From: Escherichia phage vB_EcoP-101114UKE3
Direction: 5' to 3' (one strand)
Sequence record: NC_070982.1
DNA: 64,000 nucleotides
Part shown: positions 7,544-50,079 of the stretch, piece after piece
Position numbering within the stretch: the first letter of the stretch is position 1
Layout of the letters: every line of letters begins with the position of its first letter
Made by a program: the position numbers and the translations under genes
Notes under the pieces: model-generated
What the model saw: the letters and a program-made list of their open reading frames with translations, nothing else
What the model was told of the DNA's origin: nothing
The model's database searches: none

Positions 7544-7549
7544 CAAATA

Positions 7550-7575
7550 GGGGCTTCGGCCCCTTTTATTGTTTT
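7550..7575 (+). terminator. GC hairpin with TTCG loop plus T-run
   Basis: ggggc-ttcg-gcccc then ttttattgttttt. Confidence 0.5.
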
Positions 7576-7590
7576 TAATTGGAGGTACTT

Positions 7591-8559: not shown

Positions 8560-8560
8560 T

Positions 8561-9595: not shown

Positions 9596-9604
9596 GGAGA
9601 GGAT

Positions 9605-10402: not shown

Positions 10403-10411
10403 GGAGGACTT

Positions 10412-14124: not shown

Positions 14125-14148
14125 TCTAAGACCTAAGTCCTATCTCTT

Positions 14149-14159
14149 ATAATGTATAT
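14149..14159 (+). promoter_or_regulatory. phage-specific promoter-like motif TAATGTATATA
   Basis: motif 36 nt upstream of ATG 14195; near-identical copies upstream of three minus-strand genes. Confidence 0.5.
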
Positions 14160-14194
14160 AGGAGGTAGGACATTTTTATTTATAAGGAGACGTT

Positions 14195-17100
14195 ATGGCT
14201 AATTTAAAATCGTGGGAAGAAGCTTCCAAAGCTCCTGCGTATCTGAACGCCTCTCCAGAGCAACAGGCTCAAATGAGAGAACAATACAAGGCAGCAGGGG
14301 GCACTATTCCTGAGACTCAACCACAAGAGCAACCACAACAAGAAGAACGAGGTGCTATTGGGGAGTTTGCTCAAGGTGTGTCTAACGCTCTTCAATCAGG
14401 TGGTGCTAACATTGCAGCTAGTGCTGCTAAAGGTTTAGGTGGGCTGGTAGAGATTGGTGAAAACTTAACTGGTTCGGAAACAAGCTATGGTAAGCGCATT
14501 CAAGAGAACTCTAAACAGTTGCTGGAAGAACGCTTATCTAAGATAGAAGATGGTTTTGGTAAAACAGCTGGTCAGTATGCTGGTGTTGCTGCTGATATTG
14601 GTTTGACAGTTGCAAACCCTGCTGTTGCTGCTGCTGTTATCGCAGCTCGTGAAACAGGTCGTGCTTATGCTGATCAAACTCCTAAAGAAGATGAAGATAA
14701 ATCAGTCTTAGATGCTGCTCTTGTTGGTGGTGCTAACTACGCTGCTCAGAAGATCCTTCCGGGCATGACTGGTACAGCTTCTACTACTCTTGGTCGTGTA
14801 GGACAAAGCGTAGCCTCTAACGCAGTTGCTGGTGCTAAGGGTGGTGCTATTGTTGGTGCTGCTGAAGCTCAGAACAAATATGGGGATGACACTACTCTAG
14901 CTAACGTATTAGAAGGGGCTATTGAAGAGGGTGCACTCGGTGCTGCTTATGGTGGGGCGATTGGTGGGGTTCATGGGTTAATAAGCCGTCCTAGCCCTCA
15001 AGTGTTTGATCGTACTCCTGAGCATGTTAAGACTGACATTGCTGCTGAAGATGAGGCTATTCGTAAAGCTGCTAACGCTGATGAACTTCGTGAAGCCTAT
15101 GCTAAAGCTGAGAATGCTAATGCTGCCTCTGCTTTAAACCTTCTGGATGAAAATGGTTTCCGAATCACAGATGCAGTTGCTATGGACTCTCCTGCTGTTC
15201 AGCGTATATTAAATACAGACCAAAGTCGTGCAGAGAAAGCTGCTACGGTTCAGAAAGATAGCTCTAATGTTCCCGGTCTCAATCCTCTCGCTTCTCCTAA
15301 GAAGACTCAAGGTAAAGCTTTTGCTGACAATGAGTACAACCAGAAACAAGCTGTGGCAATGAAAGATGCAATGGCTGACTACACTAAAGATAACACCAAA
15401 GCCCTTACTGATGTTCTAGACAACCTAGACCGAGAGTTAGTAGCTCTGAGAGCAAGTGGTGATTTTACTGGTAGTGCTATTGACATTAAAAACCGTACTC
15501 AAGCTGATCGTGATTTTATTGATGCTTATAAAACTTTTTACAGTGAAGCTAATCGTTTCAAAGCTCGTGATGGTGAAGACCTAAACAACTTCATTGATAA
15601 AGCTACTCAGTTGCAGAAGCTATCTGAAAATGTTTCTCCAGAAATGAAGAAGGCCATTGGTGGATTAAAGAAACTAAAAGGTATGCCTGAAGGTTTTAAC
15701 CCTATCCAAGATGCTTTCACTCTGAATAATACAGCTAAGTTCATGAGTAACCAAGACCGTGGTTGGACCTCTCTGACTGATGACGGTTTTCGTGAAGCTC
15801 CGGCTCCTGTGTTAGTTAAGAATCCTCTCGGTGCAGCCAAGTATGTACTTAACCGCTTTACTTCCGATCGTGCTCGTGCTCAACGTGAGAAGCAACAGTC
15901 AGCTAATAGTGAAGCTATCCGCTCTTTGGCTAGGGCTGATTTAGAAGTACAACGAGCTAGGACTCAGGCTGAAGAAGCAAGAGCAAAAATGGAAGAAGAA
16001 CCAACCACAGAAGACATCAAATTCCGTACTCAAAATGATGCACCTTCCGAACCGGTTCGTGAGGAGCCTTCTGCTACTACTGTGACGGAAGAAATTCCGT
16101 CCTCTCCAGCTCCAACTGAAACACCTCTTACTGCGAGGGATTTGGTTGCTCAAAGACGTGCTCTCCAACAAGCAGAGCTTAGACGTCAAGAAGCTGAAGC
16201 TGCTCAGGCTCAAGAAAGTGCTACACCAGAACCTGAACCACAGCAAGAAGCTCTTACAGCTAGAGAATTAGTAGCTCAGCGTAGGGCTGTAGCAGAGGCT
16301 AAGAAACGTCAAGAGGCAGAAGAAGCAGAACGTGCTAAAGAAGCTCCTGAGGAAGCCGTAGAAGAGCCTAAAGAGAAACCTGAGCCATTACCTGCTCGTG
16401 CTCCTAAAGCTCCTGAGAAGGCTCCTGAGCCTGTTAAACCGTCACTTGGTGTAGAGCGTCTAGCTTCTATGTCAACTGCTGCTCGTCAAGCAACGAAAGA
16501 CCGTGCTGATCGATTTGCTCGTTCTTTGTATTCGGCTGCTGCTAAAGCTAAAGCCACTGCGGAAAATTTCCTTTCTTACAAGGGAGATCCTAAAGAGCTT
16601 ATGCGTCGTATCCGTCAGGAAGACCAAGCAAACAACACACAGCGTCATGAAGAGATGGCTAGAAACCAACTAGCTTCACAGCAAGGCATTGCTTCTGCTA
16701 AATCTCAACATGTTCGTGCTTCTTTTGCTGATTGGGTGAAAGAACGTGGGTTGCCTTCTGATATTGCTACTAAGGCTTTACGGGCTGAAGAGAAAGGTTT
16801 AGGTGGGAACGTCACAAGTCTAGATTCACTGAAGCGAAGAGCTGAGCGTTTATATCAGAAACAAAGAGATGATGAGTTTGACCGTCTCTATCGAGAGGCT
16901 CTGGAAGAGAATAAAGCTTTTGATAAGAGAGATGCTCCTAAACTGGTAGACCAGAAGAAAGAGCTTCAGGATGAAATTGGTGCGTTGCTTGATGCTGAAC
17001 CGTTACGTCCTGCTCAGAAAGATGCTATGCGTAGGATTATGGAAGACTTCGTGGAGAGTAAGTTTAAATCTTCAGAGAAAGCTGGAAGGGTTGAGGCTTT

Positions 17101-35093: not shown

Positions 35094-35627
35094 TTATACA
35101 CCCTTAGATGCAACTACACCATTACTGCCGTTGTATCGACCCTTCACTGCATAAGAGTCATCACCAGCGTGAGAGTGTTCGAACATAACCATTTGACCAA
35201 CACGCATCCCAGCACGAACTCGTAAGCTATGATTATGGGTAACGTTATGAAATTCAAAGGTTAGTTTACTGCTGTTAAACCCTGCATCAGCCCAACCAGC
35301 ATGGAGGTGGTTTAAACCACAACGAGCCATTGAGGAGCGAAGTACAAACAGGCTTGAGATGTTATCTGGAAGGTTAAACTCTTCCATTGAGTGCGCTAAG
35401 AAGAATTGCCCCGGAGTGATAACAATACCATCTTCAGGGATTTTTACTTCTTTCCACTTGAGGTTTTCTTTAGCATCAATGTCAACAATTCCGTCAGCCT
35501 GTTCTTCAACAAGGATAGTATCACCAATACGGATATCCACGCTAGCAGCGTTAACATATTTATGCTCCGCATCTAAAAAGCCATTATCAATAACGCTGTG
35601 TAATTCTTGAGAACCTAAAAGACTCAT
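35094..35627 (-). CDS. dcd: dCTP deaminase (dUTPase-fold)
   Basis: HAGWADAGFNSSKLTFEFHN motif. Confidence 0.7.
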   Translation of the reverse strand: MSLLGSQELHSVIDNGFLDAEHKYVNAASVDIRIGDTILVEEQADGIVDIDAKENLKWKEVKIPEDGIVITPGQFFLAHSMEEFNLPDNISSLFVLRSSMARCGLNHLHAGWADAGFNSSKLTFEFHNVTHNHSLRVRAGMRVGQMVMFEHSHAGDDSYAVKGRYNGSNGVVASKGV

Positions 35628-37087
35628 GAGTTTCTGTTTCCTTGTACAGATGATGCCAAATTATTAATCATGTTACGAGCTGTTTCACGAGATAGTGTAA
35701 CACCTGCTAAGTTGTTATGAAGCTCACCAGATAGCTCACGAGCAGCAGCTCGAAGTTCTGTACCAAGTGTAGTATCGGAGTGAGCCAAACCATTACGACG
35801 ACTATAAGGTCGAGGAGCTTCGTTAGCGTCATTAGCCAATGATGCAAAACCAATATGAGCAGCTTCACGAGACGCTATAGTTGACACTCGATCTTCCGTA
35901 GGGGTTGGCAAATCACCAACTTCTACACGTTCTATATCACCAGCACGTAGACCCTGAACGACTGAGCTTACTGTTTCCCATGAACGACGAGAACGCTGTA
36001 AATCACCCATTGACGGAGAAGAAGCAGGTCGAACAGTTACTCCACCTGTATCATGAGTGACATGCCATGTACGAGTATCCATTCCAGAAGAGCGTGCACT
36101 ACCAAAACTGCCAGTGAAAGTGTCACGAGGTGCCATTGTAGGAGGAACTGCGAATCTTTCCTGTTGCCAAGAATCGCGTCTGTTAGTTCCCGGAGTCCAA
36201 GGCTGCGTGATTGCTTCAGCACCTATAGTGGTTAATCCGCTAGACCATTCTGTCTGTAGGTTAACTTCCTCGTCCAGATAACTACGACCCCTTTCCTGAG
36301 GAATGTTTAATATAGTTTCCATCATCTTCAGGGTATAATGACGACGCTGATTCTGATATAAATTTACACCAGCCATAGGTCCAACTAAATCACTAATCAG
36401 GTGAACTTCTGGCTCACCGAAAGCTCCCATTGCAAGGTGCATATATTCGGTAGAACTGCTATAAACTGCAACAGTTGCTTCAGGCCACTTCTTGTGAACA
36501 TACTTCATTTCACGACCAGATACCACAGGAATGTCACGAGTGTATGACATTGCAAACAAACCTTCGTTTGACACATACATGTCATCAAGAGACATGAACC
36601 CCTGACAGATCATAGGAAAGCGACGGCTTAAAGTATCCATATCCAAAGGTAGATTAATCATCATCTGGATTTTAACTTGATCAATCTCAATTTCCAGAAT
36701 CTCTTGGAAAGTGAAAAGTGCTTCAGCGTAAGTTGTCCCACTAACAGGCTGAACTAGGCGAGATGTAGTTTGAAGCCCTTTACTCTCTGTCCAAGACAAG
36801 AAGTTGTCAAGGAACAGTGCAGCATTCATCACGTTAGCAGGGTTGTTTTCCTGACGGGTGTTCCAACGAAACCCTCCTTGGACTAGGAAGATATCCACAT
36901 CATTCGGAGTTCGGTTCTGGAAGAACGTATCACGGATAGCACCACCTGCAATAACAGGGTAGATACCATCAGGAACTACGTTGTCTCTGATCAGATTGCG
37001 AATCAGATCAAGCCCTACGCTGAGGGCTTCTCCTTCTTGAAGGTTTAATTCAGACAATGGAATCTTAATCATTTCTACATTTTCCAA
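35624..37087 (-). CDS. nucleotidyltransferase (CCA-adding/poly(A)-polymerase-type head) with low-complexity C-terminal half
   Basis: [10 protein letters not shown]...DVDIFLV polymerase-beta-type NTase motifs; C-terminal 230 aa S/T/R/A-rich. Confidence 0.5.
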
Positions 37088-37623
37088 TTTAGAGATGGGG
37101 GATTCTTATAATCAAATCCAGCCATTTGGCAAAGACACATGTAAACCTTAACTGTCAAGTTAACGTCTTGCTCACAATACGTGAACATGTCTTCAGTGAA
37201 TGCATCCCATGCTTCTTCCTGTTCACCATAATCACCCTTCAGCTCTCCCAGAAATTCGCCCCATTGCTTGAGGCCATGACCGCGAGGGCCATGTCTAGGG
37301 TCGCCTTTGGGGTATTCTGGACTATCACCAATACGGTCAGGCTTGAGATATCTACTCAGGCACAAAGTATCGAAGACGTTAAAGCGAAAAGGTATCACAT
37401 GAGAATAAAACTTAAACAAAGCAGGAAGGTCAAAATCAATAATATTGTGACCTATTACTACATCAGCTTCTTTCAGTTTGTGTAGTGCTTCTTCAATTTG
37501 GTGAGGGCGATACCCCCACCGCTCTCCAGATAATACATCAAATATCCAGATACACCAGACATTCTGAATACCATCATAGAGATTATCACCCTCGATATCA
37601 AACGCATACAGTTTCTTTACCAC
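37075..37623 (-). CDS. DnaQ-like 3'-5' exonuclease (stand-alone)
   Basis: Exo I YAFDIEGD, Exo II HNIIDFD, Exo III YCEQD. Confidence 0.6.
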
Positions 37624-39407
37624 GGACGTGCCTCCCCTTCCTGTGCAAGTAAGGAAGCTGCATCCTCTCCATTGGTAACGGTAAAAGGATGCTCTTCATC
37701 AACTTCATGATCTTCTCGTTCTACAAGACGACCTGTTTCGTTAATGTATTTGGTATAGCAAACCCCTGTCTGTCCATAGTTACGCTCTTTGAGCAGTCGT
37801 ATGATTGACAAGTTTTTACCTAACCCATCCGCTTGTTTGTTACGTTCAAAACCAATAATACACTGACACCAGCGCATCAATGAACGTGAACCAGTAAACT
37901 GTACTTCTTTAACCTGACCACCTTCTTCGTGAGGTGCACCACCTGCCGGAGCGTTCAAGTGAGATAATACAAAAGCAGTGAAGTCTAATTCCTTACACAT
38001 ACCAGCAAGCTCTGAAGCAATCTTGCTGATTTCTGTGTTTACCTCAGATGGGGTTAAGTGAGATACCAATGCAGTGATGTTATCAAGAATGATAAATTTA
38101 CACTGATTCTCAACTACCCAAAAGCGAATACACTGCTTAATGTCTTCCCACTCGTTCTGCCCAAAGTTGTCATACAAGAAAAACTTATCAGCGTATCGAA
38201 GTGCTTCATCTCGTAGCTGGCTTTCTTCGTACTCAACATCTGGTCGGTGGAATGGAATAGATGCAGATTTACCTGCAATGTTCTTAACAGACATGCCTAC
38301 CTTCTCTTCCAAGAAGAAGCCACCACCATTAAAACCATGCTCAAGGCAAAGCCATGCTACTAGTTCGTGTGCGATTAAGGTTTTACCTGAACCAACACCA
38401 CCGCCGATTGCAACCATCTCTCCCCAACGAATACCAAAGGTCATGTCGTTAAGAGTTTTCCACGGATAAGGAATACCCCATTCCGCTTTCTTCAGAGCAT
38501 CTTCGAGGCAATCAAAAACTGTAACAGCTCCAGCAGGAGATTCCCGCTTAGCTGAATATTTCAGATTGTTGAAAAGCTCTTGACCTCTCCCTGCAAGTAA
38601 CATGTCGTTTGCATCTTTGATTTCCTTTTCTTGTCCGTTATAAGTGAACGTACCTTTTGGAATCCTTGCAAACTTAACATGCGGGTACAGAGAACGACCC
38701 TTAGTTAAAGCAATCTCACCTGCATCATCATTGTCCATGCAGAGTACAATCTCCTCGAAACCATTAATAAAATCACGGTTTCTTGATAATACAGAAGAGA
38801 TTGAACCTGCACCGAACGGAAGAGAGACGCAAGCAGGTTTGATGTTAGTTGCGTTTGTAAACGCGGTAAGTACGTGGAACCCAGACATACAAGAGAGAGG
38901 ATCTTCAAAGATGAAGAGTTTCTTGTTGTATACGTCACCACGTTGTGCTTGAGCCATACCAAACAAGTCGGCTTCTTTCACATTACCTACATAATAGAAC
39001 TTCTTGCTGTCTAGAAGTTTTACTTCATATCCAACAATGTTCCCATCACGTTCACGAGGGAAGAAGTAGCTGTCAGGAGTTTGACCATCTGTTTGGCTTA
39101 AACCGATACGGCATCCATAACGTTCAGATACAGCTTTAGGAATTAAGCGACGAGTCAACTCTCCCTGAGGAAGCTCTAAGCAATCGTCTAAGACTTCTCG
39201 GAGTTCTTCAGGGGACAGCTCTTTCTTTTCATTAGGAGTGGGCGTCGTTCCTTTCTCGAAGATTTCATACGCACCACATCTGTTACATGAACCCCACTCC
39301 TCACCGGACTCTTCATTTCGGAAGAGAATCATGTGATTGCGGGTCTTATCACGACCATGAGAGATACACTCTTTACAGCCTGTGTCTCCCAAAATGATCT
39401 TTGACAT
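37617..39407 (-). CDS. primase-helicase
   Basis: N-terminal Cys4 zinc ribbon, [13 protein letters not shown], Walker [10 protein letters not shown]. Confidence 0.85.
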
Positions 39408-39442: not shown

Positions 39443-39650
39443 TTAGTAAAACGATCGTATTTCTTCCCACACATCATCTTGCAAGTTTCTAAAACCCTGC
39501 AAGGTTTGCTTTGTTCTGTGAATAAATTCTTCAGAGTGCTTATCAGGTGTGAGCATACTGACAAACTTTTCATAGCGATTAATCTTCCACCGCATCTTCA
39601 AGTAGTCAGATTCCAGCTTTCTTAACTTCTGCCTGTCAGTTACTGTCATC
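39443..39650 (-). CDS. hypothetical protein
   Basis: start MTVTDRQ at 39650; track start 39745 would overlap GGCT gene. Confidence 0.3.
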
Positions 39651-40067
39651 CTTCTCACCTGCCAGATATGCTGTCCAGTCACCAGATTCAACCAGAACAT
39701 CTTGTTCTTCGTCGATGTGATAAATCCACGCTTCCACAGTTTCACCGCTGTCCAATAATACTGGAATCAGTGTACGCTTGTAAAAGGTGTATGGGTTATC
39801 ATTACCACGATGACCTTCCAGACCGTCATACGGACCTTCCAGACCAGCTTGGGTTGTTTCAAAGACTTCTACACGAACAGGCTTACCATTGCTGTCATGC
39901 TCCAAAGATACACTTGGGAAGTATGCTGTGCAATACTGATACAGGTTACAGTTGTTTACTGTCCACCCTTCACCAATAGACACACCACCTGCACGAGCAT
40001 TGATAGCGTGGTTGTGTTGACCTTTACGAAGAGAACCATACGTTGCAACTAATACTTTATCAGACAT
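39636..40067 (-). CDS. gamma-glutamyl cyclotransferase-like (AIG2/GGCT fold)
   Basis: N-terminal VATYGSLRKG motif. Confidence 0.6.
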   Translation of the reverse strand: MSDKVLVATYGSLRKGQHNHAINARAGGVSIGEGWTVNNCNLYQYCTAYFPSVSLEHDSNGKPVRVEVFETTQAGLEGPYDGLEGHRGNDNPYTFYKRTLIPVLLDSGETVEAWIYHIDEEQDVLVESGDWTAYLAGEKDDSN

Positions 40068-40071
40068 TACA

Positions 40072-40269
40072 TTACCTTTTGTTTAAAATTTCTTTTGTAC
40101 AAGAAGTCCCGTTACACACGAGAACTGTTTGAGTTATAGAATCGACAACTGTTACATGGCTGCCGCATTGAGTTATGATTTGACCTCTCCCTGAATCTTT
40201 AGAGATGCATTCATCAGCGGCGATCGCTGACACACTGAATAAGGAGAGGAAAAATAGAATCTTTTTCAT
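40072..40269 (-). CDS. small secreted Cys-rich protein
   Basis: signal peptide MKKILFFLSLFSVSAIAA; 6 Cys in mature part. Confidence 0.4.
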   Translation of the reverse strand: MKKILFFLSLFSVSAIAADECISKDSGRGQIITQCGSHVTVVDSITQTVLVCNGTSCTKEILNKR

Positions 40270-40275
40270 GGCTGC

Positions 40276-40692
40276 TTACCAATCATGTTGGAAACCAGAA
40301 TATCCAGAGAAGATGATTGATCGGATTGGCTTTTCAGGGAATCCTTCAAAACATCCCTTAATGGCTTTCTTGGTTTCATCAGAAATTGACTCTTTTTCAC
40401 CAAACCAATATTCTTCAAAAATATCAGAGAAGATATAAGTTCGGTATCTTTCCAAGTCATAAAAACCTTCCACTGCACTTGTAACAGCTCTACTAATTAC
40501 ACTTGAAGCTACAGGAAATAAGTCACCGTGTTCCAGAAACAAGCACCAACGATCAAAGAGAGGAATCTCTTCATCTTTCAGAAGACTTTCTAACTCTTCC
40601 TTTGCCTCTTTCTTGTGCTTCTCAAAGAGGTTTTTGGAATACTCTACATCTAAGATACGACTTTTAAACATATCCAGTTTATTATTAACCAT
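40276..40692 (-). CDS. hypothetical protein
   Basis: 138-aa ORF. Confidence 0.4.
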   Translation of the reverse strand: MVNNKLDMFKSRILDVEYSKNLFEKHKKEAKEELESLLKDEEIPLFDRWCLFLEHGDLFPVASSVISRAVTSAVEGFYDLERYRTYIFSDIFEEYWFGEKESISDETKKAIKGCFEGFPEKPIRSIIFSGYSGFQHDW

Positions 40693-40718
40693 TTTACAAC
40701 CTCTAGTTAAATTCGAAC

Positions 40719-40742
40719 TAGCCTCCTCTTTCGAAGAGGCTA
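40719..40742 (-). promoter_or_regulatory. intergenic RNA hairpin with GAAA tetraloop
   Basis: perfect 10-bp stem on minus strand (C-A mismatch on plus strand); no U-run. Confidence 0.35.
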
Positions 40743-40749
40743 AAGCAAA

Positions 40750-40935
40750 TTATTCTACTTCGAAGTGTTTGATCACACCAGTCAGTACATCAGATTGGAA
40801 TGTACCCACTAGCTCTGTACCTCGGAAAAAGTTAACACTTGTTCCAAGTGATTCAAAGCGATCTGCTTGAATGTCCAGAGATTGAATATTTCCTTCTGCT
40901 GACATTGTACGAAACATGATTGTGTATTTATTCAC
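40750..40935 (-). CDS. small hypothetical protein
   Basis: 61-aa ORF. Confidence 0.35.
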   Translation of the reverse strand: MNKYTIMFRTMSAEGNIQSLDIQADRFESLGTSVNFFRGTELVGTFQSDVLTGVIKHFEVE

Positions 40936-41174
40936 AGACTCGTTACTCCCTTATCTGCTTGTGCAATTGCGATGATACGCTCAGCACATTCCATTGAATA
41001 CTTATCACCTCGTTTGAGGAAGGTGATGATTGCAGAGAACTGATTACCAATCATTCTCTTATTTGTGATACCAAACTCTTCACAGAGTTGGTTGATAGCT
41101 TTACGAGAGCCTACAATCAGAGGCTCTTTTTCTTCGGTCATTCCACGGCTGATCAAATCTTCGATAGACAACAT
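40932..41174 (-). CDS. small hypothetical protein
   Basis: 80-aa ORF. Confidence 0.35.
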   Translation of the reverse strand: MLSIEDLISRGMTEEKEPLIVGSRKAINQLCEEFGITNKRMIGNQFSAIITFLKRGDKYSMECAERIIAIAQADKGVTSL

Positions 41175-41200
41175 TACAAATTCCTTTTTGTTTAATTTAA

Positions 41201-42436
41201 TTACAGAGTTACTGCTACTTCGCTACCTTCAACATTGACAGACTCTAACTTGCGAGGGTTATGAATCTGGACTGGATTGACCGGAACGTTCCAACCACTG
41301 CGGTAGAAGTTACGACCATCACAGAACAAAATGACATTGGCAGACATTGCATTCGGTTGAAGGTTGTTGTGGACGTGACGGATATCTGCAATCCAGTAAC
41401 CACGAGACAAAGTGTAACCAGTAGGTGCATTACGAATAGTTTGAGTATTCATCTGACCTTCTAGCTGCATTTCTTCAGGAACTACATCTACCGAATCAAC
41501 CGGCTGTGCTACTTGTCCTTCCAGTGCAAAGTTTTCATCATCAGCACTTTCAATATCATCCACTAACTCACCGTCTCCATCTTCAATCGGAGTCTGGTAA
41601 ACCACTTTATACTGAGGAGTATAGAGAGGGTTCTGAGCTTTAACAAACTCAAGAATGTTATGACGGTAGGTATCCAGAGTTGTACCAGTCAGGCCCGGTG
41701 CTGTATTAACTTCCAGTACCCACGCTTCTTGACCTTTGGTGATAATATCAACTGCACCGAAATCCAGACCCATTGATTCAACAGCTTTCACTGCATTGAT
41801 CAGAGAGGCGTCATTCGGAGCATCTGTGAAGGAGCTTGAGTAAACCCAGCCAGTGTGGTGATTACGAATATCTTCACGATAGTTAGGGTCTTCGCGATAA
41901 CCATTGCGACGAATCTTCTTCTGAACATAGGTGATTACACCTTTGAACACATGGACACGCCACTCACGACGTGGGCCTTGAATGCCTTTAGTGTACAGTT
42001 CAGCTCGACCAAGACCATCACCCGGTTCTACAACAACAATGCCCGAACCAGAGTGACCAGTCAGCTCATGGCGCTCATACACAATATTACCAGTGTTTGA
42101 CCACTCTTGAGCAGTCTCTTGAACATCTGTGTATTCCACAGTTTTAACACCTGCTTGGTCCATCACGCTGAAAGCACGACGTTTGTTCGCTGCCATATGT
42201 AAGGCTGCGGTACGGTTAAGGACGGTTGCAGAACCAAAGAATGATTCAGGATAGCGACGGTTCCCGTAGTTAACAACCACATCACCTTCACGAGAACGCC
42301 AGCGGCTATTCTCTGAAAGAAGACCCATCACGTTAGCATTGATGCGTTCATCACGGATAGTATCACTGATAGCAGATACTAGAGCGTTAACAGAATCAGA
42401 CGGGCCATACGGAAGAACACGGATACGAGTAGTCAT
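41201..42436 (-). CDS. ATP-grasp amidoligase
   Basis: C-terminal WVLEVNTAPGLTG ATP-grasp signature. Confidence 0.75.
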   Translation of the reverse strand: MTTRIRVLPYGPSDSVNALVSAISDTIRDERINANVMGLLSENSRWRSREGDVVVNYGNRRYPESFFGSATVLNRTAALHMAANKRRAFSVMDQAGVKTVEYTDVQETAQEWSNTGNIVYERHELTGHSGSGIVVVEPGDGLGRAELYTKGIQGPRREWRVHVFKGVITYVQKKIRRNGYREDPNYREDIRNHHTGWVYSSSFTDAPNDASLINAVKAVESMGLDFGAVDIITKGQEAWVLEVNTAPGLTGTTLDTYRHNILEFVKAQNPLYTPQYKVVYQTPIEDGDGELVDDIESADDENFALEGQVAQPVDSVDVVPEEMQLEGQMNTQTIRNAPTGYTLSRGYWIADIRHVHNNLQPNAMSANVILFCDGRNFYRSGWNVPVNPVQIHNPRKLESVNVEGSEVAVTL

Positions 42437-42438
42437 TT

Positions 42439-42669
42439 TTAGATACCTTTTAGTTTAAGAATTTCGTTACGACAGGATTGAATTTTAGCTTCGATTGCCC
42501 AATACTCAGCGAACATTTCGTCTTCTTGGGCATCGCTTGGAGAGTCGATTAAGTTAAAAGCAAACGGATACAGCTTTCGCTGCTCCGTTACCAGTTGTTG
42601 AAGTCGGAGTTGTTGATACTCCAGCATTGTCAGGTGAGGCTTAGCTCCCTTGCTTGACATGAGGCTCAA
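42439..42669 (-). CDS. small hypothetical protein
   Basis: 76-aa ORF. Confidence 0.35.
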   Translation of the reverse strand: MSLMSSKGAKPHLTMLEYQQLRLQQLVTEQRKLYPFAFNLIDSPSDAQEDEMFAEYWAIEAKIQSCRNEILKLKGI

Positions 42670-42874
42670 CTTTAATCCCCTTCATTTTAACATAGTCAGC
42701 CAACACGTTATTGATAACGGTTGGAAAAGGGATTTCTACTGGAGAGTCAACCAGCTTCCCAATACCTTCTTGCATCCACTTCTGGATTGCTCGGAGGTTA
42801 TCACATCCTGTGCTTGTCATCGGAATACGGCGGGTAGTTACCACGTTATCCAACATCAGTTTACGAACTTCCAT
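42641..42874 (-). CDS. small hypothetical protein
   Basis: 77-aa ORF overlapping previous by 29 nt. Confidence 0.35.
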   Translation of the reverse strand: MEVRKLMLDNVVTTRRIPMTSTGCDNLRAIQKWMQEGIGKLVDSPVEIPFPTVINNVLADYVKMKGIKVEPHVKQGS

Positions 42875-42885
42875 AACTATACCTC

Positions 42886-44919
42886 TTAGTGTTTACCTTT
42901 ACAGTAATCTGAATTACAGATCACCCTGTTTTCTTTGTTCAGTGAGCAAGTTTCTGCATCACGCCACGGAATTTGTTTATAACAGACTGCACAAAACCCA
43001 ATTGAAGTCCAGAGGGCTTTTGTAAACTCAGCTGTTCGTTGTCCATCGTAACTGACAACTGTTTTTCGGAGAGAGGTTGACTTTTCTGGAAATGTCTCCG
43101 CTTTCTCAGCGGGTACCTCCTTTGGGGCATTCTTTGGACCATAAACAGAGATGGCATAAGTATCACCACCACGTTTTTCCAAATACGAATTAGGAACATC
43201 TGCAAGTGTGATGTCCCCTGAACGTTTTGCTGAGCTGACCATTACAATCATACGGCTAAGCATACGTTCATCAACACGAACAGCTACTTCAGGACGACGT
43301 GGGTTGGTTGTGTCTACTGCTTTAGTCCAAATATAACCTTCAGATAGAGTAACATTCTTTACTTTATCTTTGATTTCTTTGGAGCAGATATAACAAACGT
43401 CTTCACCACGAAGTTTACTCATTTCGTTGTCAAACTCGAAATCAGTCTTGACTTCACCACAGATAGCACATACACCCAAAGGCACATCTTCTTCCTCTTC
43501 AGAGGTTTTAGATAACGCTTCGAAGCATTCTGGATGCCAGTATGCCTGATAAGCAAACACAGCCTTACGAGCATCTTTCCAGTCAATGTGCTTATCACAA
43601 CCACCACAGTCACCATGAGAGTGAGATTCCCAGAACTTACGAGTGACTTCTACACCATTCTTAGTGATGAAGGAGTCCTCTGCATCAAAAGGGATATCAT
43701 CATCAAAATCAGCAGTAGTGCTTTGAGGCTCCTTATCTGTAGCATCAACAAACAGCCCTGAAGTTAGTACGAGGCGAATCATACTGTCCACTTCGGAGAT
43801 ACAAGCAATCGTCCCGCGATATACTACCTTTGGGTTTTCAAGAGCCTTAAGATATTCATCTTTGGCTACGTTGTGAACATCCCCTTCGACATACTCTTGA
43901 GCTTTATCATCGTAGATGTAACCAACCATCTTACCACGATCTGTGTTGTTATAAGCATGGAACTCGTGAGGAATAATATCCACACGACCATCACGACGAT
44001 AAGGAAGACCGCGATCGGCAGCCAGTTTGTTCTGGTCTTCAATCGCTTTACGACGACGAATGTCTCCGCTTGTCACGCCGGGCTTGTCGTCTTTGTTTCC
44101 GTAAATGTCGCTTGTGCTGCTGCTTGATTTGTTTGTCTGTTGGTTCTGATAAAGAGAGGAGTTCGAGTAATAGCCGCCCCAGCGACTCGTTACCGTAAAA
44201 ACCGGAAGCGTGTGCTCCACCTCTTGAACCAGAGTCATACGACTGTTAGACACATCAAAGATATACTCAGTTCCCACTTTACATTCGAAGTGGTCATTGA
44301 TATGGTTCTTATGGGACTTAGAACGCTCTAAAATCCACATAAGCATAGCTTCTTCAGAAGCTCCAAACCAATCCAAACCACAGCGGGCTAGGTGGAAAGG
44401 ACGCTCATCATTACGGATAATGTGAAGTGTGTTGTCTTTAGCATCATGCCAAATCAAAGTGAATGCACCATCCAGTTTTTGGATAGTCTCTGCTGCTCCA
44501 ATGGTGTTAATTGAGTGGCAGATGTTTTCACTATCAACTTCGAAACGCTTACTGTCAGGAAGGAGATCTTGATCTAACAGGGTTCCATTATGAACCAGAG
44601 TAATATCCCCGTGAGTAAATGGGTGAGCATTTCGAGCATTGACAGCCCCACGAGTGGCATGTCGGCTGTGACCAACAATCCACGAAGGAGGAACTACGTA
44701 GTTCGTAAGCCCTTTGGTAATATTTGTATATTCTGTCTGGAGCATAAAAGCATAAGAAGGAAGAGCTTCTTTATAAGAGAAGACTTGCTTTTCACCTTTA
44801 CGCTGACCAAACACACCAGTTGAGTGCTGTCCACGGAAAACACCAGCATACAGAAGTTGGTTGAAAATGTCCAAATCTGCTGAGGTCATGTTGCCGCCAG
44901 CTAATACGATACCACAAAT
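42886..44919 (-). CDS. class-II (Ntn) glutamine amidotransferase fused to Cys-rich Zn-ribbon region; proposed AUU start
   Basis: CGIVLAGGN...YAGVFRGQHSTGVFG and HSRHATRGAVNARNAHPF...LVHNGTL match PurF/AsnB-type domain; catalytic Cys lies 9 codons upstream of track ATG (44889), preceded only by ATT then AAA then TAG, with AGGTGG SD 8 nt before ATT. Confidence 0.65.
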   Translation of the reverse strand: MCGIVLAGGNMTSADLDIFNQLLYAGVFRGQHSTGVFGQRKGEKQVFSYKEALPSYAFMLQTEYTNITKGLTNYVVPPSWIVGHSRHATRGAVNARNAHPFTHGDITLVHNGTLLDQDLLPDSKRFEVDSENICHSINTIGAAETIQKLDGAFTLIWHDAKDNTLHIIRNDERPFHLARCGLDWFGASEEAMLMWILERSKSHKNHINDHFECKVGTEYIFDVSNSRMTLVQEVEHTLPVFTVTSRWGGYYSNSSLYQNQQTNKSSSSTSDIYGNKDDKPGVTSGDIRRRKAIEDQNKLAADRGLPYRRDGRVDIIPHEFHAYNNTDRGKMVGYIYDDKAQEYVEGDVHNVAKDEYLKALENPKVVYRGTIACISEVDSMIRLVLTSGLFVDATDKEPQSTTADFDDDIPFDAEDSFITKNGVEVTRKFWESHSHGDCGGCDKHIDWKDARKAVFAYQAYWHPECFEALSKTSEEEEDVPLGVCAICGEVKTDFEFDNEMSKLRGEDVCYICSKEIKDKVKNVTLSEGYIWTKAVDTTNPRRPEVAVRVDERMLSRMIVMVSSAKRSGDITLADVPNSYLEKRGGDTYAISVYGPKNAPKEVPAEKAETFPEKSTSLRKTVVSYDGQRTAEFTKALWTSIGFCAVCYKQIPWRDAETCSLNKENRVICNSDYCKGKH

Positions 44920-44996
44920 TTTCTAATCCACCTGAAGGGTAAACCCTTTCATCTAATTAACCTTTAAATGCGCCCTGTATAAGAGCGCCCGTTGTG

Positions 44997-46097
44997 TTAC
45001 AGCAGTCGTTCTAATTGCATTTCCAGATGGTCTGGAATATAACCAGTGACGTTATCATCACTGCTACCTGATTCACGCATCAATGCAAACATGTGACGAA
45101 TTTCACGAACCGTTGCGATTCGAGTGCTTTCAATCTGAGGGGTGTAGTAGGTCATGATCTCTTCGTAGACACTGTTGGCATTACCGCGCACATATCCCAA
45201 GAAACCATAGAAGTCATTCATATCACGTAAGTTGATAAGGACTTCACCATCAGGGCCAGTCTGTTGCACACGAACACGACCAACCAAAGTTACAGATTGC
45301 TCACGACAGAAGAGAATATCACGAGCAAGACGATACCCTTCAGTGAGATCACTGTCTCTTGGAGTATAGTCTAGGGGTAGATGTTGAATCATAGGAGCGA
45401 AGCGCAGCTCATTCAACTTCTCAACATAAGCTTCATTGTCTAAATCTGCATATTCAACAGCCAGTTTCTTGAGAACCAAGAAGCGGTTGACCAGATTCAG
45501 AAGTTGGCTCTTTTTCCACTTCGGCTCTGAGATACGGAACTCAACAGAACCAAATTGAGATAGAGGCAAAAGATTAAGGGAGGTGTATTTATCCCAGCTA
45601 TTAACAAGAGAGTGGAAGAAAGCTTCCCCGTCTCGGTTGAACGCTGACGAAGCATTCATAACTTGTGCTTGAACGACAGCAAAAGCTGGACAGAAGTTGC
45701 TACGATAGCGATGGTATCCAGAACATTTGAACATCATCTTTTCATAGAACGTCCATCCAAGAATAACTTTCTTAAGGATATTACTATCAGCGTCACGCAT
45801 ATCCATATGAACGTGAGTGGAGCAGCGCCAAGTTCCCTCGGCTCCAGAATCCTGTACTGCTTCACTCAGATTGTTAATAGCACGAAGTAATTCTTCACCG
45901 TTGTAAGGTCGTGCACATACTAATTCACAACCATCACGAAGAGAGCCATCTTCAGTACAAACCCACATATCAGCGTCAATGTCAGTTGTACCTTCGACTT
46001 CTAACTCAATACCAACACCACACTGAAAAGCAATACTTGGATGCGGTTCAGATAAGCGAGGGTTACGGTATCCAAAAACTTGTGCTACGGTTGTCAT
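44997..46097 (-). CDS. amidoligase (glutamine synthetase/GCS-like fold)
   Basis: GIELEVEG ... CSTHVH motif pattern. Confidence 0.5.
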   Translation of the reverse strand: MTTVAQVFGYRNPRLSEPHPSIAFQCGVGIELEVEGTTDIDADMWVCTEDGSLRDGCELVCARPYNGEELLRAINNLSEAVQDSGAEGTWRCSTHVHMDMRDADSNILKKVILGWTFYEKMMFKCSGYHRYRSNFCPAFAVVQAQVMNASSAFNRDGEAFFHSLVNSWDKYTSLNLLPLSQFGSVEFRISEPKWKKSQLLNLVNRFLVLKKLAVEYADLDNEAYVEKLNELRFAPMIQHLPLDYTPRDSDLTEGYRLARDILFCREQSVTLVGRVRVQQTGPDGEVLINLRDMNDFYGFLGYVRGNANSVYEEIMTYYTPQIESTRIATVREIRHMFALMRESGSSDDNVTGYIPDHLEMQLERLL

Positions 46098-46720
46098 AAT
46101 GATTCCACCAACTCTACATTATATGATGACAGGTCTGAAGAAATATGCTTGAACTTCTCCAGAAGGTTTAAAGATTGACGACCATTGTCGCCATAACCAG
46201 CTTCAAGAAGCACGTTTCCAACGTAAGCCCCTTTGTAATAAACTTTTCCATCGACAGGATTGATATAGATGAAACGAGTAACCAACCCTTCAAACTCTGG
46301 ATTAAACAGGTTATACACCAAATCACCCGGAATCGAACGTCCGAGAGAAGGTGGAGTACCACGAAGTTTATTCCCCATCAAGCCTTTAGCTCGCTGACGA
46401 ACAGGGTTGATATGGGTCCAGCTCACCACGTTATTACCATGCTGAAGGTATCCTACATCTGGAGACTCCAGAATGAGGCTGTGATCAAACACTGGGATAT
46501 TACTAACAATCTGACGTTCAAACTGACCTTCGGAGTTTTTAGTCCAGCGTTCCGCCTCAAACACTAAAGACATTTCAGCGTCGTGTGAGTAGTCGTCGAT
46601 ATCAAAGTTACCTTGCTGACGAACATCAAGCACATATAGAGGGAGGTTTTTACCATCAGGTGATCGCTGAGCAATCCATGTTCCACAATAATAGTGTTGA
46701 AAATCTCTTAACAAGCTCAC
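46094..46720 (-). CDS. hypothetical protein (cassette member)
   Basis: 208-aa ORF translationally coupled within cassette. Confidence 0.4.
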   Translation of the reverse strand: MSLLRDFQHYYCGTWIAQRSPDGKNLPLYVLDVRQQGNFDIDDYSHDAEMSLVFEAERWTKNSEGQFERQIVSNIPVFDHSLILESPDVGYLQHGNNVVSWTHINPVRQRAKGLMGNKLRGTPPSLGRSIPGDLVYNLFNPEFEGLVTRFIYINPVDGKVYYKGAYVGNVLLEAGYGDNGRQSLNLLEKFKHISSDLSSYNVELVESL

Positions 46721-46729
46721 AATATCACC

Positions 46730-47536
46730 TTATACAATCTGGAGTTTAGAGGAGAATTTATCTGCTTCTTTAACATCGTTACTGTTGATGATGTTGTGAA
46801 GCTTTTCAATTGGAAGGCGAGAGTGAAGTGACATCAATACTTCCATATCACAGCCTTGAACAACCTTATCAACTTGCTCATAAACAAACTTGCGGGTTGA
46901 CTTCTCGCCAATCCAGAAGTTAGAAAGAGAACGATATTCAATACCGTAATCCTTGTAACGAATGGCAGAAGCCTTTCCGTATAACTCTTTACGACGAGTG
47001 TCTTTATCCATGATTACAGCTGGCAAGGACAGGAAATAATCACACAACACACCCAACATCATTTGAGTTTGTCGAGTAATCTCTAAAGTCCCGGAGACAC
47101 CAAGGTGCACATGACCCCCAGCAGTACGCAAACCCTTATTAGTTGCGACCGGTGAAGGGTTCTTTTGTCCAGTGAAGGCATTGAAATCAGGAGTACAACC
47201 AAATACAAAGGCTGACGGATGGAAAGATTCAAGCTCTTCTGAAGTGAACACATGAGAGCTAATCCCAAGTGCTGCCTCCATGCCACGTTCATTGAGAACT
47301 TTGTTAGTCAGATCAATACCACGCTGAATGTTATCATCAAACGCTTCAAACCCTTCCTGTGGGTTAATATCAAACTCGGCCAGAACGTTGTCTTCTTGAA
47401 GACGAACATCAGGAGCCAGATCAATTTTATTGTCTTTAGAACAGCCCAGCTTACCAGCCACAGAGGTGATAATACCGGAAGCAGTACGAACAAACATTTC
47501 AGGGTCAGAGCCAATAAGGAAAGCGCGCTTAGTCAT
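46730..47536 (-). CDS. COOH-NH2 ligase-like protein (second amidoligase)
   Basis: start MTKRAF at 47536 with GGAG SD; GSDPEMF ... GCTPDF ... GGHVHLG motifs. Confidence 0.5.
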   Translation of the reverse strand: MTKRAFLIGSDPEMFVRTASGIITSVAGKLGCSKDNKIDLAPDVRLQEDNVLAEFDINPQEGFEAFDDNIQRGIDLTNKVLNERGMEAALGISSHVFTSEELESFHPSAFVFGCTPDFNAFTGQKNPSPVATNKGLRTAGGHVHLGVSGTLEITRQTQMMLGVLCDYFLSLPAVIMDKDTRRKELYGKASAIRYKDYGIEYRSLSNFWIGEKSTRKFVYEQVDKVVQGCDMEVLMSLHSRLPIEKLHNIINSNDVKEADKFSSKLQIV

Positions 47537-48479
47537 TGTAATACTCCACGAGTTCATCAAAAAGGGAAACAACACGAGCACCAGCTTCTTCTGGTGTCAT
47601 TGAGGAAGGTACTGCTTGCATCAGACGTTCGATAAAACTTTGAACAGTAATTCTGTCCATACGCTGATCTAATACTTCTCGCTTGTGACCTGCACAAGTT
47701 GACCAGAGACGTAACCACTCACTCATACTCTCATAATGGTCAGGGTCTTGGTCACGACGACGTGCCATACGACGGAGAACTCCATCATTATGGTTTCGTA
47801 CATAACCATCTCGGTTGTCATCAACACCGAATACATTCTGAACCCATACGTTTTCAGAAAATTCATCAGTGGTGCAAATTAATGGCAGAAATGCAATTGC
47901 ACTCATGTCGCCATCAAAATAAGTCGCTGCTGACTCATCGGTTGAGTCTACGTCATTACTATAACACCAGCGACCAAAGAAGTTACGACTTAAACCAGCT
48001 AAGCGTAGAGCTAAACCGATTCGTTGTCGCTTAAGCAACTCTTCCTTGTCTTGTACGCCTTCCTGAAGGAACTCCATTCCATTAAAATCACCATCCAAAT
48101 AGCTACGGATGGTCATTAGTCCAGTAAACACCTTGTCTGCTGGATGGTTTCGAAGGTTCACGGCAATAGAGTTCACCGAAGTGACAGAGAACATATCTTT
48201 ATAGCAAGACATTGAGTTAAAAATGTCTGTTGCTTCAACTAAAGCTCTTTCGATATCTTTAGCTGGTACGCCATAAAAATTGTGAGGCCAGAAGTTAATA
48301 ACTTCAATTTCTGAAGTTCTGTCACGAAGGCTTGTTCGGTTACGACTTTCACCGTTAATGTCTGTAACAGAATACATGTGCATACAGTTAAAAGTACCAA
48401 AGCAAGCTCTTCCTTTGAACACTGACTCACCGAAATCCTCTGCCGGTGTTACCGGAGCAATCGATGCGGAGATTGACAT
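47529..48479 (-). CDS. hypothetical protein (cassette member)
   Basis: 316-aa ORF. Confidence 0.45.
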   Translation of the reverse strand: MSISASIAPVTPAEDFGESVFKGRACFGTFNCMHMYSVTDINGESRNRTSLRDRTSEIEVINFWPHNFYGVPAKDIERALVEATDIFNSMSCYKDMFSVTSVNSIAVNLRNHPADKVFTGLMTIRSYLDGDFNGMEFLQEGVQDKEELLKRQRIGLALRLAGLSRNFFGRWCYSNDVDSTDESAATYFDGDMSAIAFLPLICTTDEFSENVWVQNVFGVDDNRDGYVRNHNDGVLRRMARRRDQDPDHYESMSEWLRLWSTCAGHKREVLDQRMDRITVQSFIERLMQAVPSSMTPEEAGARVVSLFDELVEYYND

Positions 48480-48487
48480 ATTCGCCT

Positions 48488-49705
48488 CTATTTATTAAAG
48501 AATAATTTTTCCATAATGGTTTCCCACTCTTCTGAGGGGAGGGTTGAGAACCCGTTTCCGTGAAGCCTGTTTGTCATGCAACTAATAATATTGTACATGT
48601 TGTAGCTTCGGGTGGATTCTGTTCCATTGTTCCAGTTATAACCGAAAACAATTTTATCGAAGGAGGTTTTATCCGTAGTTACTTCTCGGATGAACTCAAC
48701 CAAGAGCGATTTCTCTGTGATGACCGCACGTTCACCATCTGGCAGATTACAATACTGAGGAAGAAGAATTGGTAAGAACATCGAATTGTTCACTCGACAA
48801 TCACGAACATCTTCACTGCGATAGATTAGGCTTGAGAAGTCTTCATCACGCAGGTGTCCTTCACCTTCAGTGTATTCACACTGTCGCCATTTGGTCTGAC
48901 GAGGTTCAATCATTGTACTACCAACGCCTACTGTATACAGAGACGCTTGGAAGATACACGAGTCGTAATCATTCCCTGTTAAAGCAACTTGCTCATTGCC
49001 GAACACATCCACTGAAGAGTTAATCAGTCGGCTGAATGCAAGAGAGGCTAGTGGAGACCAACCTTTCTTATACATCTTGTTCAGCATTTCATACACAGCA
49101 GATTTTTCATCATCTGTATAGAATGTACGATTCAGCATCAGATAGAACAGAGCGCGATCAGCAGGACAACCATCAGTACAAACACCCATGAATCCTACTT
49201 CATGCCATACCAGACATGAGTCAGAATCTTTATCCATGAATGCTTCAAAGGCTTCCATTACAGCCCTGTCAGTAACATCAGGACGGTTGTTTTCTTCTGC
49301 CCATGTTTCTACATGAGAAGGAGGACGAGGGTCTCCATTCTCCACCCCTTCGCGGAAATATTGAGTGGTAATAGGCTTTTTATCACCATAACGTTTTACA
49401 CCATAAGCGGGAAGGTGTGTACCAGAGTTCCAGATGTACTTAATTTCGGACATAGGCATCATGTTTTCGAGAACGTTCTCTTCAGCAGTGCCTTGACGAA
49501 CCATCATATTTTCACTCCACACCTTAATGCGGATATTCCAGCCGTAGTTGCTGTCATACGTGTTATAATAATCAGGATCACCATCTTCATCTTCATCATA
49601 ATCACCACCCTGATAGTAACCTGCTTTCAGGAAACCATAACAAGGAGGCCAGACGGTTACAACATCATCTGATTCTTTCCAGCTTTGAAGTGTTACAGGG
49701 AACAT
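48488..49705 (-). CDS. hypothetical protein (cassette member)
   Basis: 405-aa ORF, acidic N-terminus. Confidence 0.45.
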   Translation of the reverse strand: MFPVTLQSWKESDDVVTVWPPCYGFLKAGYYQGGDYDEDEDGDPDYYNTYDSNYGWNIRIKVWSENMMVRQGTAEENVLENMMPMSEIKYIWNSGTHLPAYGVKRYGDKKPITTQYFREGVENGDPRPPSHVETWAEENNRPDVTDRAVMEAFEAFMDKDSDSCLVWHEVGFMGVCTDGCPADRALFYLMLNRTFYTDDEKSAVYEMLNKMYKKGWSPLASLAFSRLINSSVDVFGNEQVALTGNDYDSCIFQASLYTVGVGSTMIEPRQTKWRQCEYTEGEGHLRDEDFSSLIYRSEDVRDCRVNNSMFLPILLPQYCNLPDGERAVITEKSLLVEFIREVTTDKTSFDKIVFGYNWNNGTESTRSYNMYNIISCMTNRLHGNGFSTLPSEEWETIMEKLFFNK

Positions 49706-49716: not shown

Positions 49717-50079
49717 TTACTCTGCTACCAAAAGGCTCAGAGATTTGCGAATGTAGTCAATACTACGGAAGTTTCGATAGTTCTCTTGGAAGCGCATTTT
49801 TTCAAACTCTGCTTCCTGAAGCTCTACCTCTGCTGCTTTATATCCTGATAAAGCTAAACTTACCACATCCTGAGGTAAGGTATTACGACGGCGAATAAGA
49901 TATTTATTCGCTTTTAGTTTACCTTGTGCACGAGCCATTTTGGCCTTTGCCGCCTTGATACCATGAGAAATCCAAAGCAGTTGCTGTTTCAGATCTTCCT
50001 CATCCATACCACCTAAATCATTTGCTACTTTATGCAGCGTAGACAGGTTCACATGGCCTTTAATGGGGCGTAGGTTCAT
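49717..50079 (-). CDS. hypothetical protein
   Basis: 120-aa basic helical ORF. Confidence 0.4.
   Translation of the reverse strand: MNLRPIKGHVNLSTLHKVANDLGGMDEEDLKQQLLWISHGIKAAKAKMARAQGKLKANKYLIRRRNTLPQDVVSLALSGYKAAEVELQEAEFEKMRFQENYRNFRSIDYIRKSLSLLVAE

Follow-up and report, generated by a model that had tools for sequence, protein, structure and literature searches.

The 64,000-nucleotide stretch of Escherichia phage vB_EcoP-101114UKE3 analysed here (sequence record NC_070982.1; hereafter the window) carries, between positions 39636 and 49705, a run of minus-strand genes that, judged by sequence, is the phiEco32/LUZ24-type amidoligase module. Its enzymes are two putative carboxylate–amine ligases (a COOH-NH2 ligase and an Amidoligase_2 protein), a class-II glutamine amidotransferase, a RimK-like ATP-grasp ligase and a GGACT/AIG2-like gamma-glutamylamine cyclotransferase (GGACT). 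The reading that we favour, and to which we give an even chance, is that the module would carry out stepwise ATP-dependent ligation of glutamyl or peptide-type amides on a small soluble cytoplasmic acceptor possessing both carboxyl and amino groups. The cassette has been known, described and named since 2009–2013, and what we report is a re-identification rather than a discovery. New here are the definition over 87 loci of a five-gene core, comprising the COOH-NH2 ligase, the 208-aa protein encoded between the two ligases (F208), Amidoligase_2, the amidotransferase and the ATP-grasp ligase; the AUU start codon and conserved leader of the amidotransferase gene; and the novel-fold pair formed by F405, the acidic 405-aa protein at the upstream end of the run, whose fold is predicted with confidence and has no counterpart among solved structures, and its probable paralogue F316.

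According to later papers that cite it, Iyer et al. (2009, Mol Biosyst) assigned these enzymes, by prediction, to cell-wall modification and the blocking of superinfection. The first-pass annotation of this DNA, made from the letters alone, had mentioned a computational prediction in phiEco32-like phages, and that mention can be traced to this study as the citing papers describe it. The name ‘putative peptidoglycan modification cassette/module’ came later, with Hardies et al. 2013 (phiRIO-1), as cited in subsequent work, and Duhaime et al. 2017 (PSA-HP1). Superinfection exclusion is the role proposed, and a 2025 paper repeats the hypothesis; a peptidoglycan function for the phiEco32-type cassette is a published prediction only. 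That the cassette is a phiEco32-like feature, as first annotated, is true as far as it goes, but it is far more widespread, and both its name and the exclusion hypothesis were already in print. Our literature search found a single experimental datum: in PSA-HP1 the homologous genes ‘were expressed immediately’ following infection.

The enzymes and their conserved residues

The profile searches proposed in the first-pass annotation bore out every enzyme call, each passing an HMM (hidden Markov model) or profile test. Curated Pfam cut-offs were applied (22.8 bits for GGACT, 27 for GATase_6, 25 for GATase_7, 22 for Amidoligase_2, 25 for COOH-NH2_lig and 21 for RimK). The cyclotransferase matches GGACT (PF06094) at 59 bits (E 8.9e-16), with the expected YGSL motif at residues 10–13 and a predicted catalytic Glu within ...YDGLEGH... 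(the LEG motif). Both amidoligases score 34.2 bits, the one against Amidoligase_2 (PF12224) and the other against COOH-NH2_lig (PF14395; Pfam E 2e-8, with phrog_3815 at E 3e-112), and both contain the HVH motif noted in the first-pass annotation. In 26 diverse members of the Amidoligase_2 family, residues E31, E33, E35, S52, E58, S93, H95, H97, E119, R130, E186 and R188 are invariant, a set that appears to include the conserved acidic/His metal cluster. The COOH-NH2 ligase, which most likely starts at the ATG at 47536, retains the motifs GxDPE, QxD, GCxPD, GH.H and EYR without change in six lineages. Family profiles of the two amidoligases found no relatives among PDB sequences. The idea that the two are paralogues of one another was dropped, profile–profile comparison having given no signal.

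With the single ATP-grasp sequence the Pfam RimK model gives only a borderline 19.6 bits, under its cut-off, and for this reason we built an alignment of 25 members drawn from diverse loci. The resulting family profile matches solved chains of RimK and other alpha-L-glutamate ligases over ~207 positions (E 8.8e-9 to 2e-7). NCBIfam models MptN (2.5e-9) and rimK_fam (1.5e-6) also match, both below their own cut-offs, and the ranking places MptN, RimK and CofF ahead of D-Ala-D-Ala ligase. Residues K85, E158, R160, H162, K174, R191, D230, E242 and N244 are invariant in all 25 members and correspond to the usual ATP/Mg-binding set, including E242-x-N244; the LEVNTAPG motif noted at the outset is present in the translation. 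The RimK/LysX/MptN/CofF alpha-L-glutamate ligases are the best sequence relatives of the phage enzyme, which keeps their ATP/Mg residues, E-x-N among them, but differs in falling far under the equivalog cut-offs and in having a variable C-terminal extension.

The class-II amidotransferase matches GATase_6 (PF13522) at 53.8 bits (E 2.6e-14) and GATase_7 at 25.1 bits, both above cut-off. Its fusion to Zn-ribbons was correctly recognised in the first-pass annotation, but the start listed for it was not: translation begins at the AUU codon at 44919 and not at the listed ATG at 44889, from which the product (MTSADL...) would lack the catalytic Cys. The frame reads TAG-AAA-ATT-TGT-GGT-ATC-GTA, is preceded by GGTGGA and yields M-C-G-I-V; the genes of Bas87 and phiEco32 are annotated from the same ATT codon. 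Starting here restores a canonical class-II N-terminus, with the Cys exposed once the initiator Met is removed. About 80 of 86 amidotransferase homologues from other phages begin MCG, indicating that the glutaminase nucleophile is under selection. The amidotransferase domain occupies ~230 aa; behind it, every lineage has a linker of low complexity, then a beta-rich region and at least one Zn-ribbon. Against Pfam, the C-terminal 440 aa gave only a weak LIM match and no synthase domain; a partner acting in trans, for example one of the amidoligases, may accept the ammonia.

Upstream of the AUU codon lies a ~55-nt leader with 100% identity between the window, phiEco32, ECBP2 and KBNP1711, whereas the flanking coding DNA diverges. 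Just past the Amidoligase_2 stop codon it contains a hairpin whose pairing is retained through compensatory changes, although the predicted fold of the leader is not significant (z −1.58). Relatives from other hosts (loci L012–L014 and L090 of our set) have an AUG start and a short, unrelated leader instead. The conservation pattern suggests that the amidotransferase is controlled at the level of translation or transcription.

The core proteins are acidic (isoelectric points, pI, of 4.6–5.8) and possess neither transmembrane or hydrophobic segments nor export signals. Searching ten cassette proteins against the PADLOC defence library gave no matches.

Distribution and synteny

A tblastn search with the ATP-grasp protein retrieved 314 phage records, among them 120 from Pseudomonas phages, 92 from Escherichia and 22 from Vibrio, with Aeromonas, Proteus, Salmonella, Cronobacter, Pseudoalteromonas and others also represented, and a pattern scan of IMG/VR confirmed 284 viral contigs. 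The cassette is found in phiEco32-, LUZ24-, 7-11- and Privateer-like phages and in the Zobellviridae. A common gene order links LUZ24 (gp14–gp22), Alcaligenes phage QDWS535, phiEco32 (gp88–gp77) and Privateer, while in the zobellvirus TC6 the set is rearranged.

Gene content was established in a set of 87 loci by iterative HMM searches. The COOH-NH2 ligase is found in all 87, Amidoligase_2 in 85, the amidotransferase in 84 and the ATP-grasp ligase in 81, compared with at least 61 for F208, 32 for GGACT and 66 for the primase. All four enzymes are present in 79 of the 87 loci, and in 71 of those the order is canonical (COOH-NH2 ligase, F208, Amidoligase_2, amidotransferase, ATP-grasp). The synteny check suggested in the first-pass annotation gives a near-invariant order, with the set placed just upstream of the primase. 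The primase starts a median of 1150 nt past the ATP-grasp gene. Searches with the ATP-grasp and primase proteins returned equal organism counts (92 Escherichia and 3 Shigella records each), and the reduced-genome phage Bas94 retains the entire cassette. Catalytic residues are invariant across very divergent phages, with only 25–40% protein identity between lineages.

These data bear on the suggestion that the run is merely a frozen stretch of early and middle genes, unrelated functions lying side by side, and not one system. An unrelated homologue of phiEco32 gp79, together with variable DUF7020 and 65-aa open reading frames (ORFs), does sit inside the run, about two thirds of loci lack GGACT, and the acidic proteins F405 and F316 (316 aa) are detectable in some lineages only. 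Against this, the four enzymes occur together, mostly in one order, in lineages as divergent as those just described; they stay together even where the order is rearranged (TC6, L038 and L079); and their catalytic residues do not vary. We regard the frozen-stretch explanation as highly improbable.

The only candidate for a natural deletion mutant is Escherichia phage myPSH2311 (L088; MG976803.1), a 68.7-kb Kuravirus record with several truncated genes in the region 6000–11000. Genes for the COOH-NH2 ligase, F208, Amidoligase_2 and amidotransferase are missing, and there are three tandem ATP-grasp fragments plus two small ORFs. We rejected it as a probable misassembly, because its genes are broken up and the ATP-grasp pieces repeated in tandem.

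Two neighbourhoods outside the window deserve mention. In L090–L092 (Logan contigs of up to 94 kb; region 400–9300), a distant lineage with the full cassette, the cassette is immediately preceded by genes for a PRPP-synthetase-like protein, NAPRTase, TerC, TerD and a vWA-TerF-like protein; the NAPRTase suggests salvage of NAD (nicotinamide adenine dinucleotide). In Proteus phage Privateer (L005), nrdA and nrdB, which encode ribonucleotide reductase, are inserted between the ATP-grasp and GGACT genes (13266–16721), which may reflect a link to nucleotide or redox metabolism or a mere insertion hotspot.

Candidate substrates

How the favoured ligation scheme might operate can be sketched from the established chemistry of the enzyme families. 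Each of the three ligases would use ATP to activate a carboxylate and join it to an amine, so that three such enzymes could form up to three successive amide bonds. The building block would most likely be glutamate or a gamma-glutamyl unit, since enzymes of the RimK/MptN/CofF clade add L-glutamate and the substrates of GGACT are gamma-glutamyl-amines. The amidotransferase could use glutamine-derived ammonia to turn a carboxylate into an amide or, like EgtC, hydrolyse a gamma-glutamyl amide, whilst GGACT would remove the gamma-glutamyl group and recycle it as 5-oxoproline. F208 and the F316/F405 pair, which are not recognisable enzymes, would act as adaptors or subunits.

Pathways in which a gamma-glutamyl group is ligated and later removed are familiar from glutathione metabolism (GshA/GshB/GGCT), ergothioneine synthesis (EgtA/EgtC) and butirosin synthesis (the ATP-grasp enzyme BtrJ and the GGCT-like BtrG). 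The same protein types recur in the cassette, namely a GCS/GS-type ligase, an ATP-grasp enzyme, a class-II amidotransferase-like hydrolase (the EgtC match being weak) and a cyclotransferase. The likeness is one of logic only, however, with no orthology to the cassette and with GshB absent from the PDB matches of the ATP-grasp profile.

As to the acceptor, no single candidate is likelier than the stem peptide of a peptidoglycan precursor. It has the support of the published expert hypothesis, and its three free carboxylates would match the three ligases; yet we put it forward only tentatively, and some other gamma-glutamyl peptide or metabolite is about as probable. Several points weigh against amide ligation on a small acceptor, and in particular on a wall precursor. 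The cassette ATP-grasp is RimK-like, not Ddl-like, and the glutamine-synthetase-like (GS/GCS) fold of both amidoligases is an assignment taken from Pfam and Iyer 2009. No Mur-ligase, UDP-binding/UDP-sugar or periplasmic domains were found in the cassette proteins. By our own reasoning, peptidoglycan is not a surface receptor in Gram-negative hosts, and a short lytic cycle would leave little time for wall remodelling; a cell-wall role also leaves the fixed position beside replication genes unexplained. The beta-rich/Zn-ribbon tail that the amidotransferase has in place of a synthase domain, and the barrels of F208, would suit a macromolecule as target more readily than a small molecule. Finally, the literature search turned up papers citing the Iyer 2009 prediction but none describing biochemical or genetic work on the product, in keeping with the first-pass statement that no experimental product was known.

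A different proposal is that the module modifies protein for host take-over, attaching glutamate or gamma-glutamyl groups to a protein of the host or the phage, such as a ribosomal, RNA-polymerase or replisome protein. F208, the Zn-ribbon tail and F316/F405 would then serve substrate recognition, and GGACT would clear gamma-glutamyl-epsilon-lysine remnants. Precedents for ligases acting on proteins are RimK on S6, LysX on LysW and PafA/Dop in pupylation, and GGACT enzymes do act on gamma-glutamyl-epsilon-lysine. In favour of a protein target are the closest ATP-grasp relative, RimK, which modifies protein C-termini, the presence in the module of non-catalytic beta-barrel and Zn-ribbon/LIM-like parts, and the immediate expression of the PSA-HP1 homologues. 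F405 and F316 also fit a host interface, being acidic and fast-evolving: their identity to phiEco32 is 42% and 55%, respectively, against 60–80% for the enzymes, and the primase is 93% in SU10-type Kuraviruses.

F208 is predicted to contain Tudor/SH3-like barrels and is a probable non-catalytic adaptor or subunit, but its loop Lys, considered as a conserved modifiable residue, was rejected as such: it is R or Q in other lineages, and only loop residues R108 and G113 are invariant. There is no Pup-like tag among the syntenic small proteins, whose C-termini (...QGS, ...KGI, ...GIKP and ...DYFE) differ between lineages; with no common C-terminal Gln or Glu, a Pup- or LysW-like carrier was rejected. 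Pupylation itself resembles the cassette in having two adjacent genes of the carboxylate–amine-ligase type (PafA/Dop have a GS/GCS-like fold), small proteins and a gamma-glutamyl-lysine chemistry suited to GGACT. It differs in that the cassette encodes neither a Pup-like protein ending in GGQ or GGE nor a proteasome or Mpa partner. Sequence also allows no inference of a target. We consider protein modification a less likely reading than ligation on a small acceptor.

Profile searches with F405 and F316 against PDB sequences found nothing. The motif PAD[KR]xxFxxLMxxR, carried by both, makes them look like paralogues in tandem with a fold specific to phages; hhalign scores the pair only weakly, and F316 is best seen as a probable, distant paralogue of F405. 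For each of GAP52 and LAh_8, BFVD gives two matches to the F405 fold, which, to go by their sizes, would be their tandem upstream proteins.

DNA or nucleotide hypermodification, in which a base or deoxynucleotide precursor would be decorated with an amino-acid amide, was one of the options raised in the first-pass annotation. It would account for the module travelling with replication genes (a primase/helicase gene lies within 2.5 kb in 58 of 64 loci) and for the resistance of the Gordonclarkvirinae to restriction-modification, and the Zn-ribbons on the amidotransferase would suit it. The BASEL study describes these phages as ‘remarkably resistant to RM systems’ with no known pathway, and relatives are reported to resist the EcoRV, EcoKI and EcoP1I systems. 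A precedent exists in CmoY, which acts on 5-carboxymethylcytosine and is, like the cassette ligases, an amide ligase that depends on ATP and is encoded by a phage, with a glutamine-hydrolysing domain in some cases (the CmoA/CmoX/CmoY pathway to 5-carboxymethylcytosine-glycine; PMC12783734). However, CmoY is asparagine-synthetase-like, forms AMP and never occurs without a DNA carboxymethyltransferase and a Cx-SAM synthase, two enzymes for which no counterpart was found in the cassette.

More generally, no base-activating enzyme (hmU/hmC synthase, 5-HMUDK kinase, DpdA or CmoA/CmoX) was found in the cassette proteins, the rest of the window not having been systematically screened; the cassette thus lacks a hydroxymethylase, a kinase, a transglycosylase and a carboxymethyltransferase of the CmoA/CmoX type. 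The acidity of its proteins also speaks against a DNA substrate, as does strong avoidance of restriction sites in the window, which is expected only for cleavable DNA. Observed against expected counts there are 0/95 for CCWGG, 124/294 for GATC and 597/962 for 6-mer palindromes, with GAGCTC (0/21), CTGCAG (0/17) and GGATCC (0/10) likewise avoided. Sites for EcoRV (27/19), EcoKI (6/8) and EcoP1I (104/112) are not avoided, and from those for EcoRV and EcoKI it follows that some other protective mechanism must exist in these phages. In LUZ24-like Rembedalsseter, whose close relative UFV-P2 is known to have the cassette, comparison of native and amplified DNA by nanopore sequencing revealed nicks only. 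Suspicion in the BASEL study falls elsewhere, on the dCTP deaminase and nucleotidyltransferase, as the pair behind a covalent DNA modification. Site avoidance, protein acidity and the Rembedalsseter data together weaken the case for DNA or nucleotide modification, which we judge improbable.

In the window, a 487-aa ‘nucleotidyltransferase’ (phrog_12715, with no Pfam or NCBIfam match) is encoded on the minus strand at 35624–37087, adjoining the gene for the DNA polymerase exonuclease subunit and near that for dCTP deaminase.

A broader version of the same idea is a replication-coupled module that would put a glutamyl or peptidyl amide on phage DNA, a nucleotide precursor or a replisome protein, with F405/F316 and the Zn-ribbon tail of the amidotransferase directing it to the target. 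It would explain the restriction-modification resistance of the Gordonclarkvirinae, but we think its chances slim.

The gene run in the window and its significance

The run (Table 1) was first described as eleven co-directional, translationally coupled genes. All are indeed on the minus strand and closely spaced, with gaps of 2–77 nt or overlaps of 4–20 nt, but we count 14 ORFs, one of them the gp79 homologue. The interval is 100% identical to that of Escherichia phage vB_EcoP-101114BS3 (MZ234015.1), a phiEco32 relative. SU7, EK010, IME267 and two BASEL phages, Bas86/87, match it at 95–99%, and with more distant Gordonclarkvirinae, SU10-type Kuraviruses among them, DNA identity falls to ~74%. 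Identity of the cassette products to their phiEco32 counterparts ranges from 42 to 84%. Nothing essential differs from the phiEco32-type system, which shares the COOH-NH2 ligase (PF14395, named after phiEco32), Amidoligase_2, class-II amidotransferase, ATP-grasp and GGCT-like protein, the gene order and the place upstream of the primase; the window copy adds the DUF7020 gene and the 65-aa signal-peptide ORF.

Table 1. Genes and other features of the amidoligase module and its flanks in the window
Feature	Position	Strand	Basis or remark
Basic 120-aa protein, pI 9.8	49717..50079	-	58% identical to phiEco32 gp89
F405, acidic 405-aa protein, phage-only fold (predicted)	48488..49705	-	
F316, acidic 316-aa protein	47529..48479	-	phrog_13102
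COOH-NH2 ligase (PF14395), annotated ATP-dependent carboxylate-amine ligase	46730..47536	-	Pfam, phrog_3815
F208, 208-aa protein, always between both ligases	46094..46720	-	
Amidoligase_2 (PF12224), annotated ATP-dependent carboxylate-amine ligase	44997..46097	-	Pfam
Amidotransferase gene leader with hairpin and Shine-Dalgarno GGTGGA	44920..44975	-	conservation among 4 phages
Class-II (Ntn) glutamine amidotransferase, 677 aa, AUU start	42886..44919	-	GATase_6
DUF7195 small basic protein, 77 aa, pI 9.3	42641..42874	-	PF23825 E 3.3e-19
~73-aa protein	42439..42660	-	63% identical to phiEco32 gp81
RimK-like ATP-grasp ligase, 411 aa, variable C-terminal extension	41201..42436	-	family profile vs PDB RimK
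phiEco32 gp79 homologue, 80 aa	40932..41174	-	76% identical to phi32_79
61-aa ORF	40750..40935	-	38% identical to phiEco32 gp78
DUF7020 protein, 138 aa, variable accessory gene	40276..40692	-	PF22885 E 1.4e-19
65-aa ORF, signal peptide and four Cys, variable accessory gene	40072..40269	-	sequence
GGACT/AIG2-like gamma-glutamylamine cyclotransferase, 143 aa	39636..40067	-	PF06094 E 8.9e-16
Primase/helicase gene	37617-39407		after GGACT in transcription order

The conserved block probably takes in the 120-aa ORF as its 5′ member, which would extend it upstream as far as about 50079. Synteny in the distant lineage L090 is the reason: the F405 homologue there is immediately preceded by an ORF with 32% identity (E 5e-14) to the 120-aa one. 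Amongst the five proteins first listed as free of recognisable motifs, two match the Pfam families DUF7020 and DUF7195. The DUF7195 gene is syntenic between the amidotransferase and ATP-grasp genes in 24 loci, including the LUZ24 gp20 position, and its product gives the impression of a ribbon-helix-helix protein. The ~73-aa protein is found in 11 loci, all from the Gordonclarkvirinae and close relatives. The predicted secreted Cys-rich peptide does have a signal peptide and four Cys. Both it and DUF7020 fall in the 6% of the interval that is absent from Bas87, SU7 and EK010; a DUF7020 gene recurs at the same position in the distant L090 lineage, where the 65-aa ORF at the corresponding position is not homologous to that in the window. 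In phiEco32, gp79 is described (PMC8948821; PMC12276001) as a transcription factor that binds RNA polymerase; it silences transcription by sigma-70 and turns on the phage sigma factor. Its homologue here does not belong to the ligase system.

The promoter consensus of the phage sigma factor gp36 of phiEco32, TAATGTATA, is matched exactly at 14150, 23271, 23342 and 29828. No promoter of this type was found between 39 and 51 kb, where the cassette lies, and its transcription therefore probably starts at early promoters further upstream. Scans for sigma-70 promoters and terminators gave matches no better than chance. A terminator-like hairpin with a T-run is seen on the minus strand at 50288–50271, upstream of a 55-aa ORF.

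The module is among the most widespread conserved enzyme sets in Gram-negative short-tailed phages for which no function has been demonstrated. Its carriers, the 314 isolate genomes and 284 IMG/VR contigs, include therapeutic Pseudomonas (LUZ24-like) and E. coli (Kuravirus-like) phages. That the cassette takes up 6–13% of these small genomes, and that Bas94, the sole reduced-genome phage inspected, retains it whole, suggests that it matters for infection. The BASEL phages Bas86–94 infect engineered E. coli K-12, which opens the question to genetic tests. Identifying the product would settle a prediction standing since 2009 and could bring to light a new way in which phages take over the host, exclude superinfecting phages or, less likely, protect their DNA.

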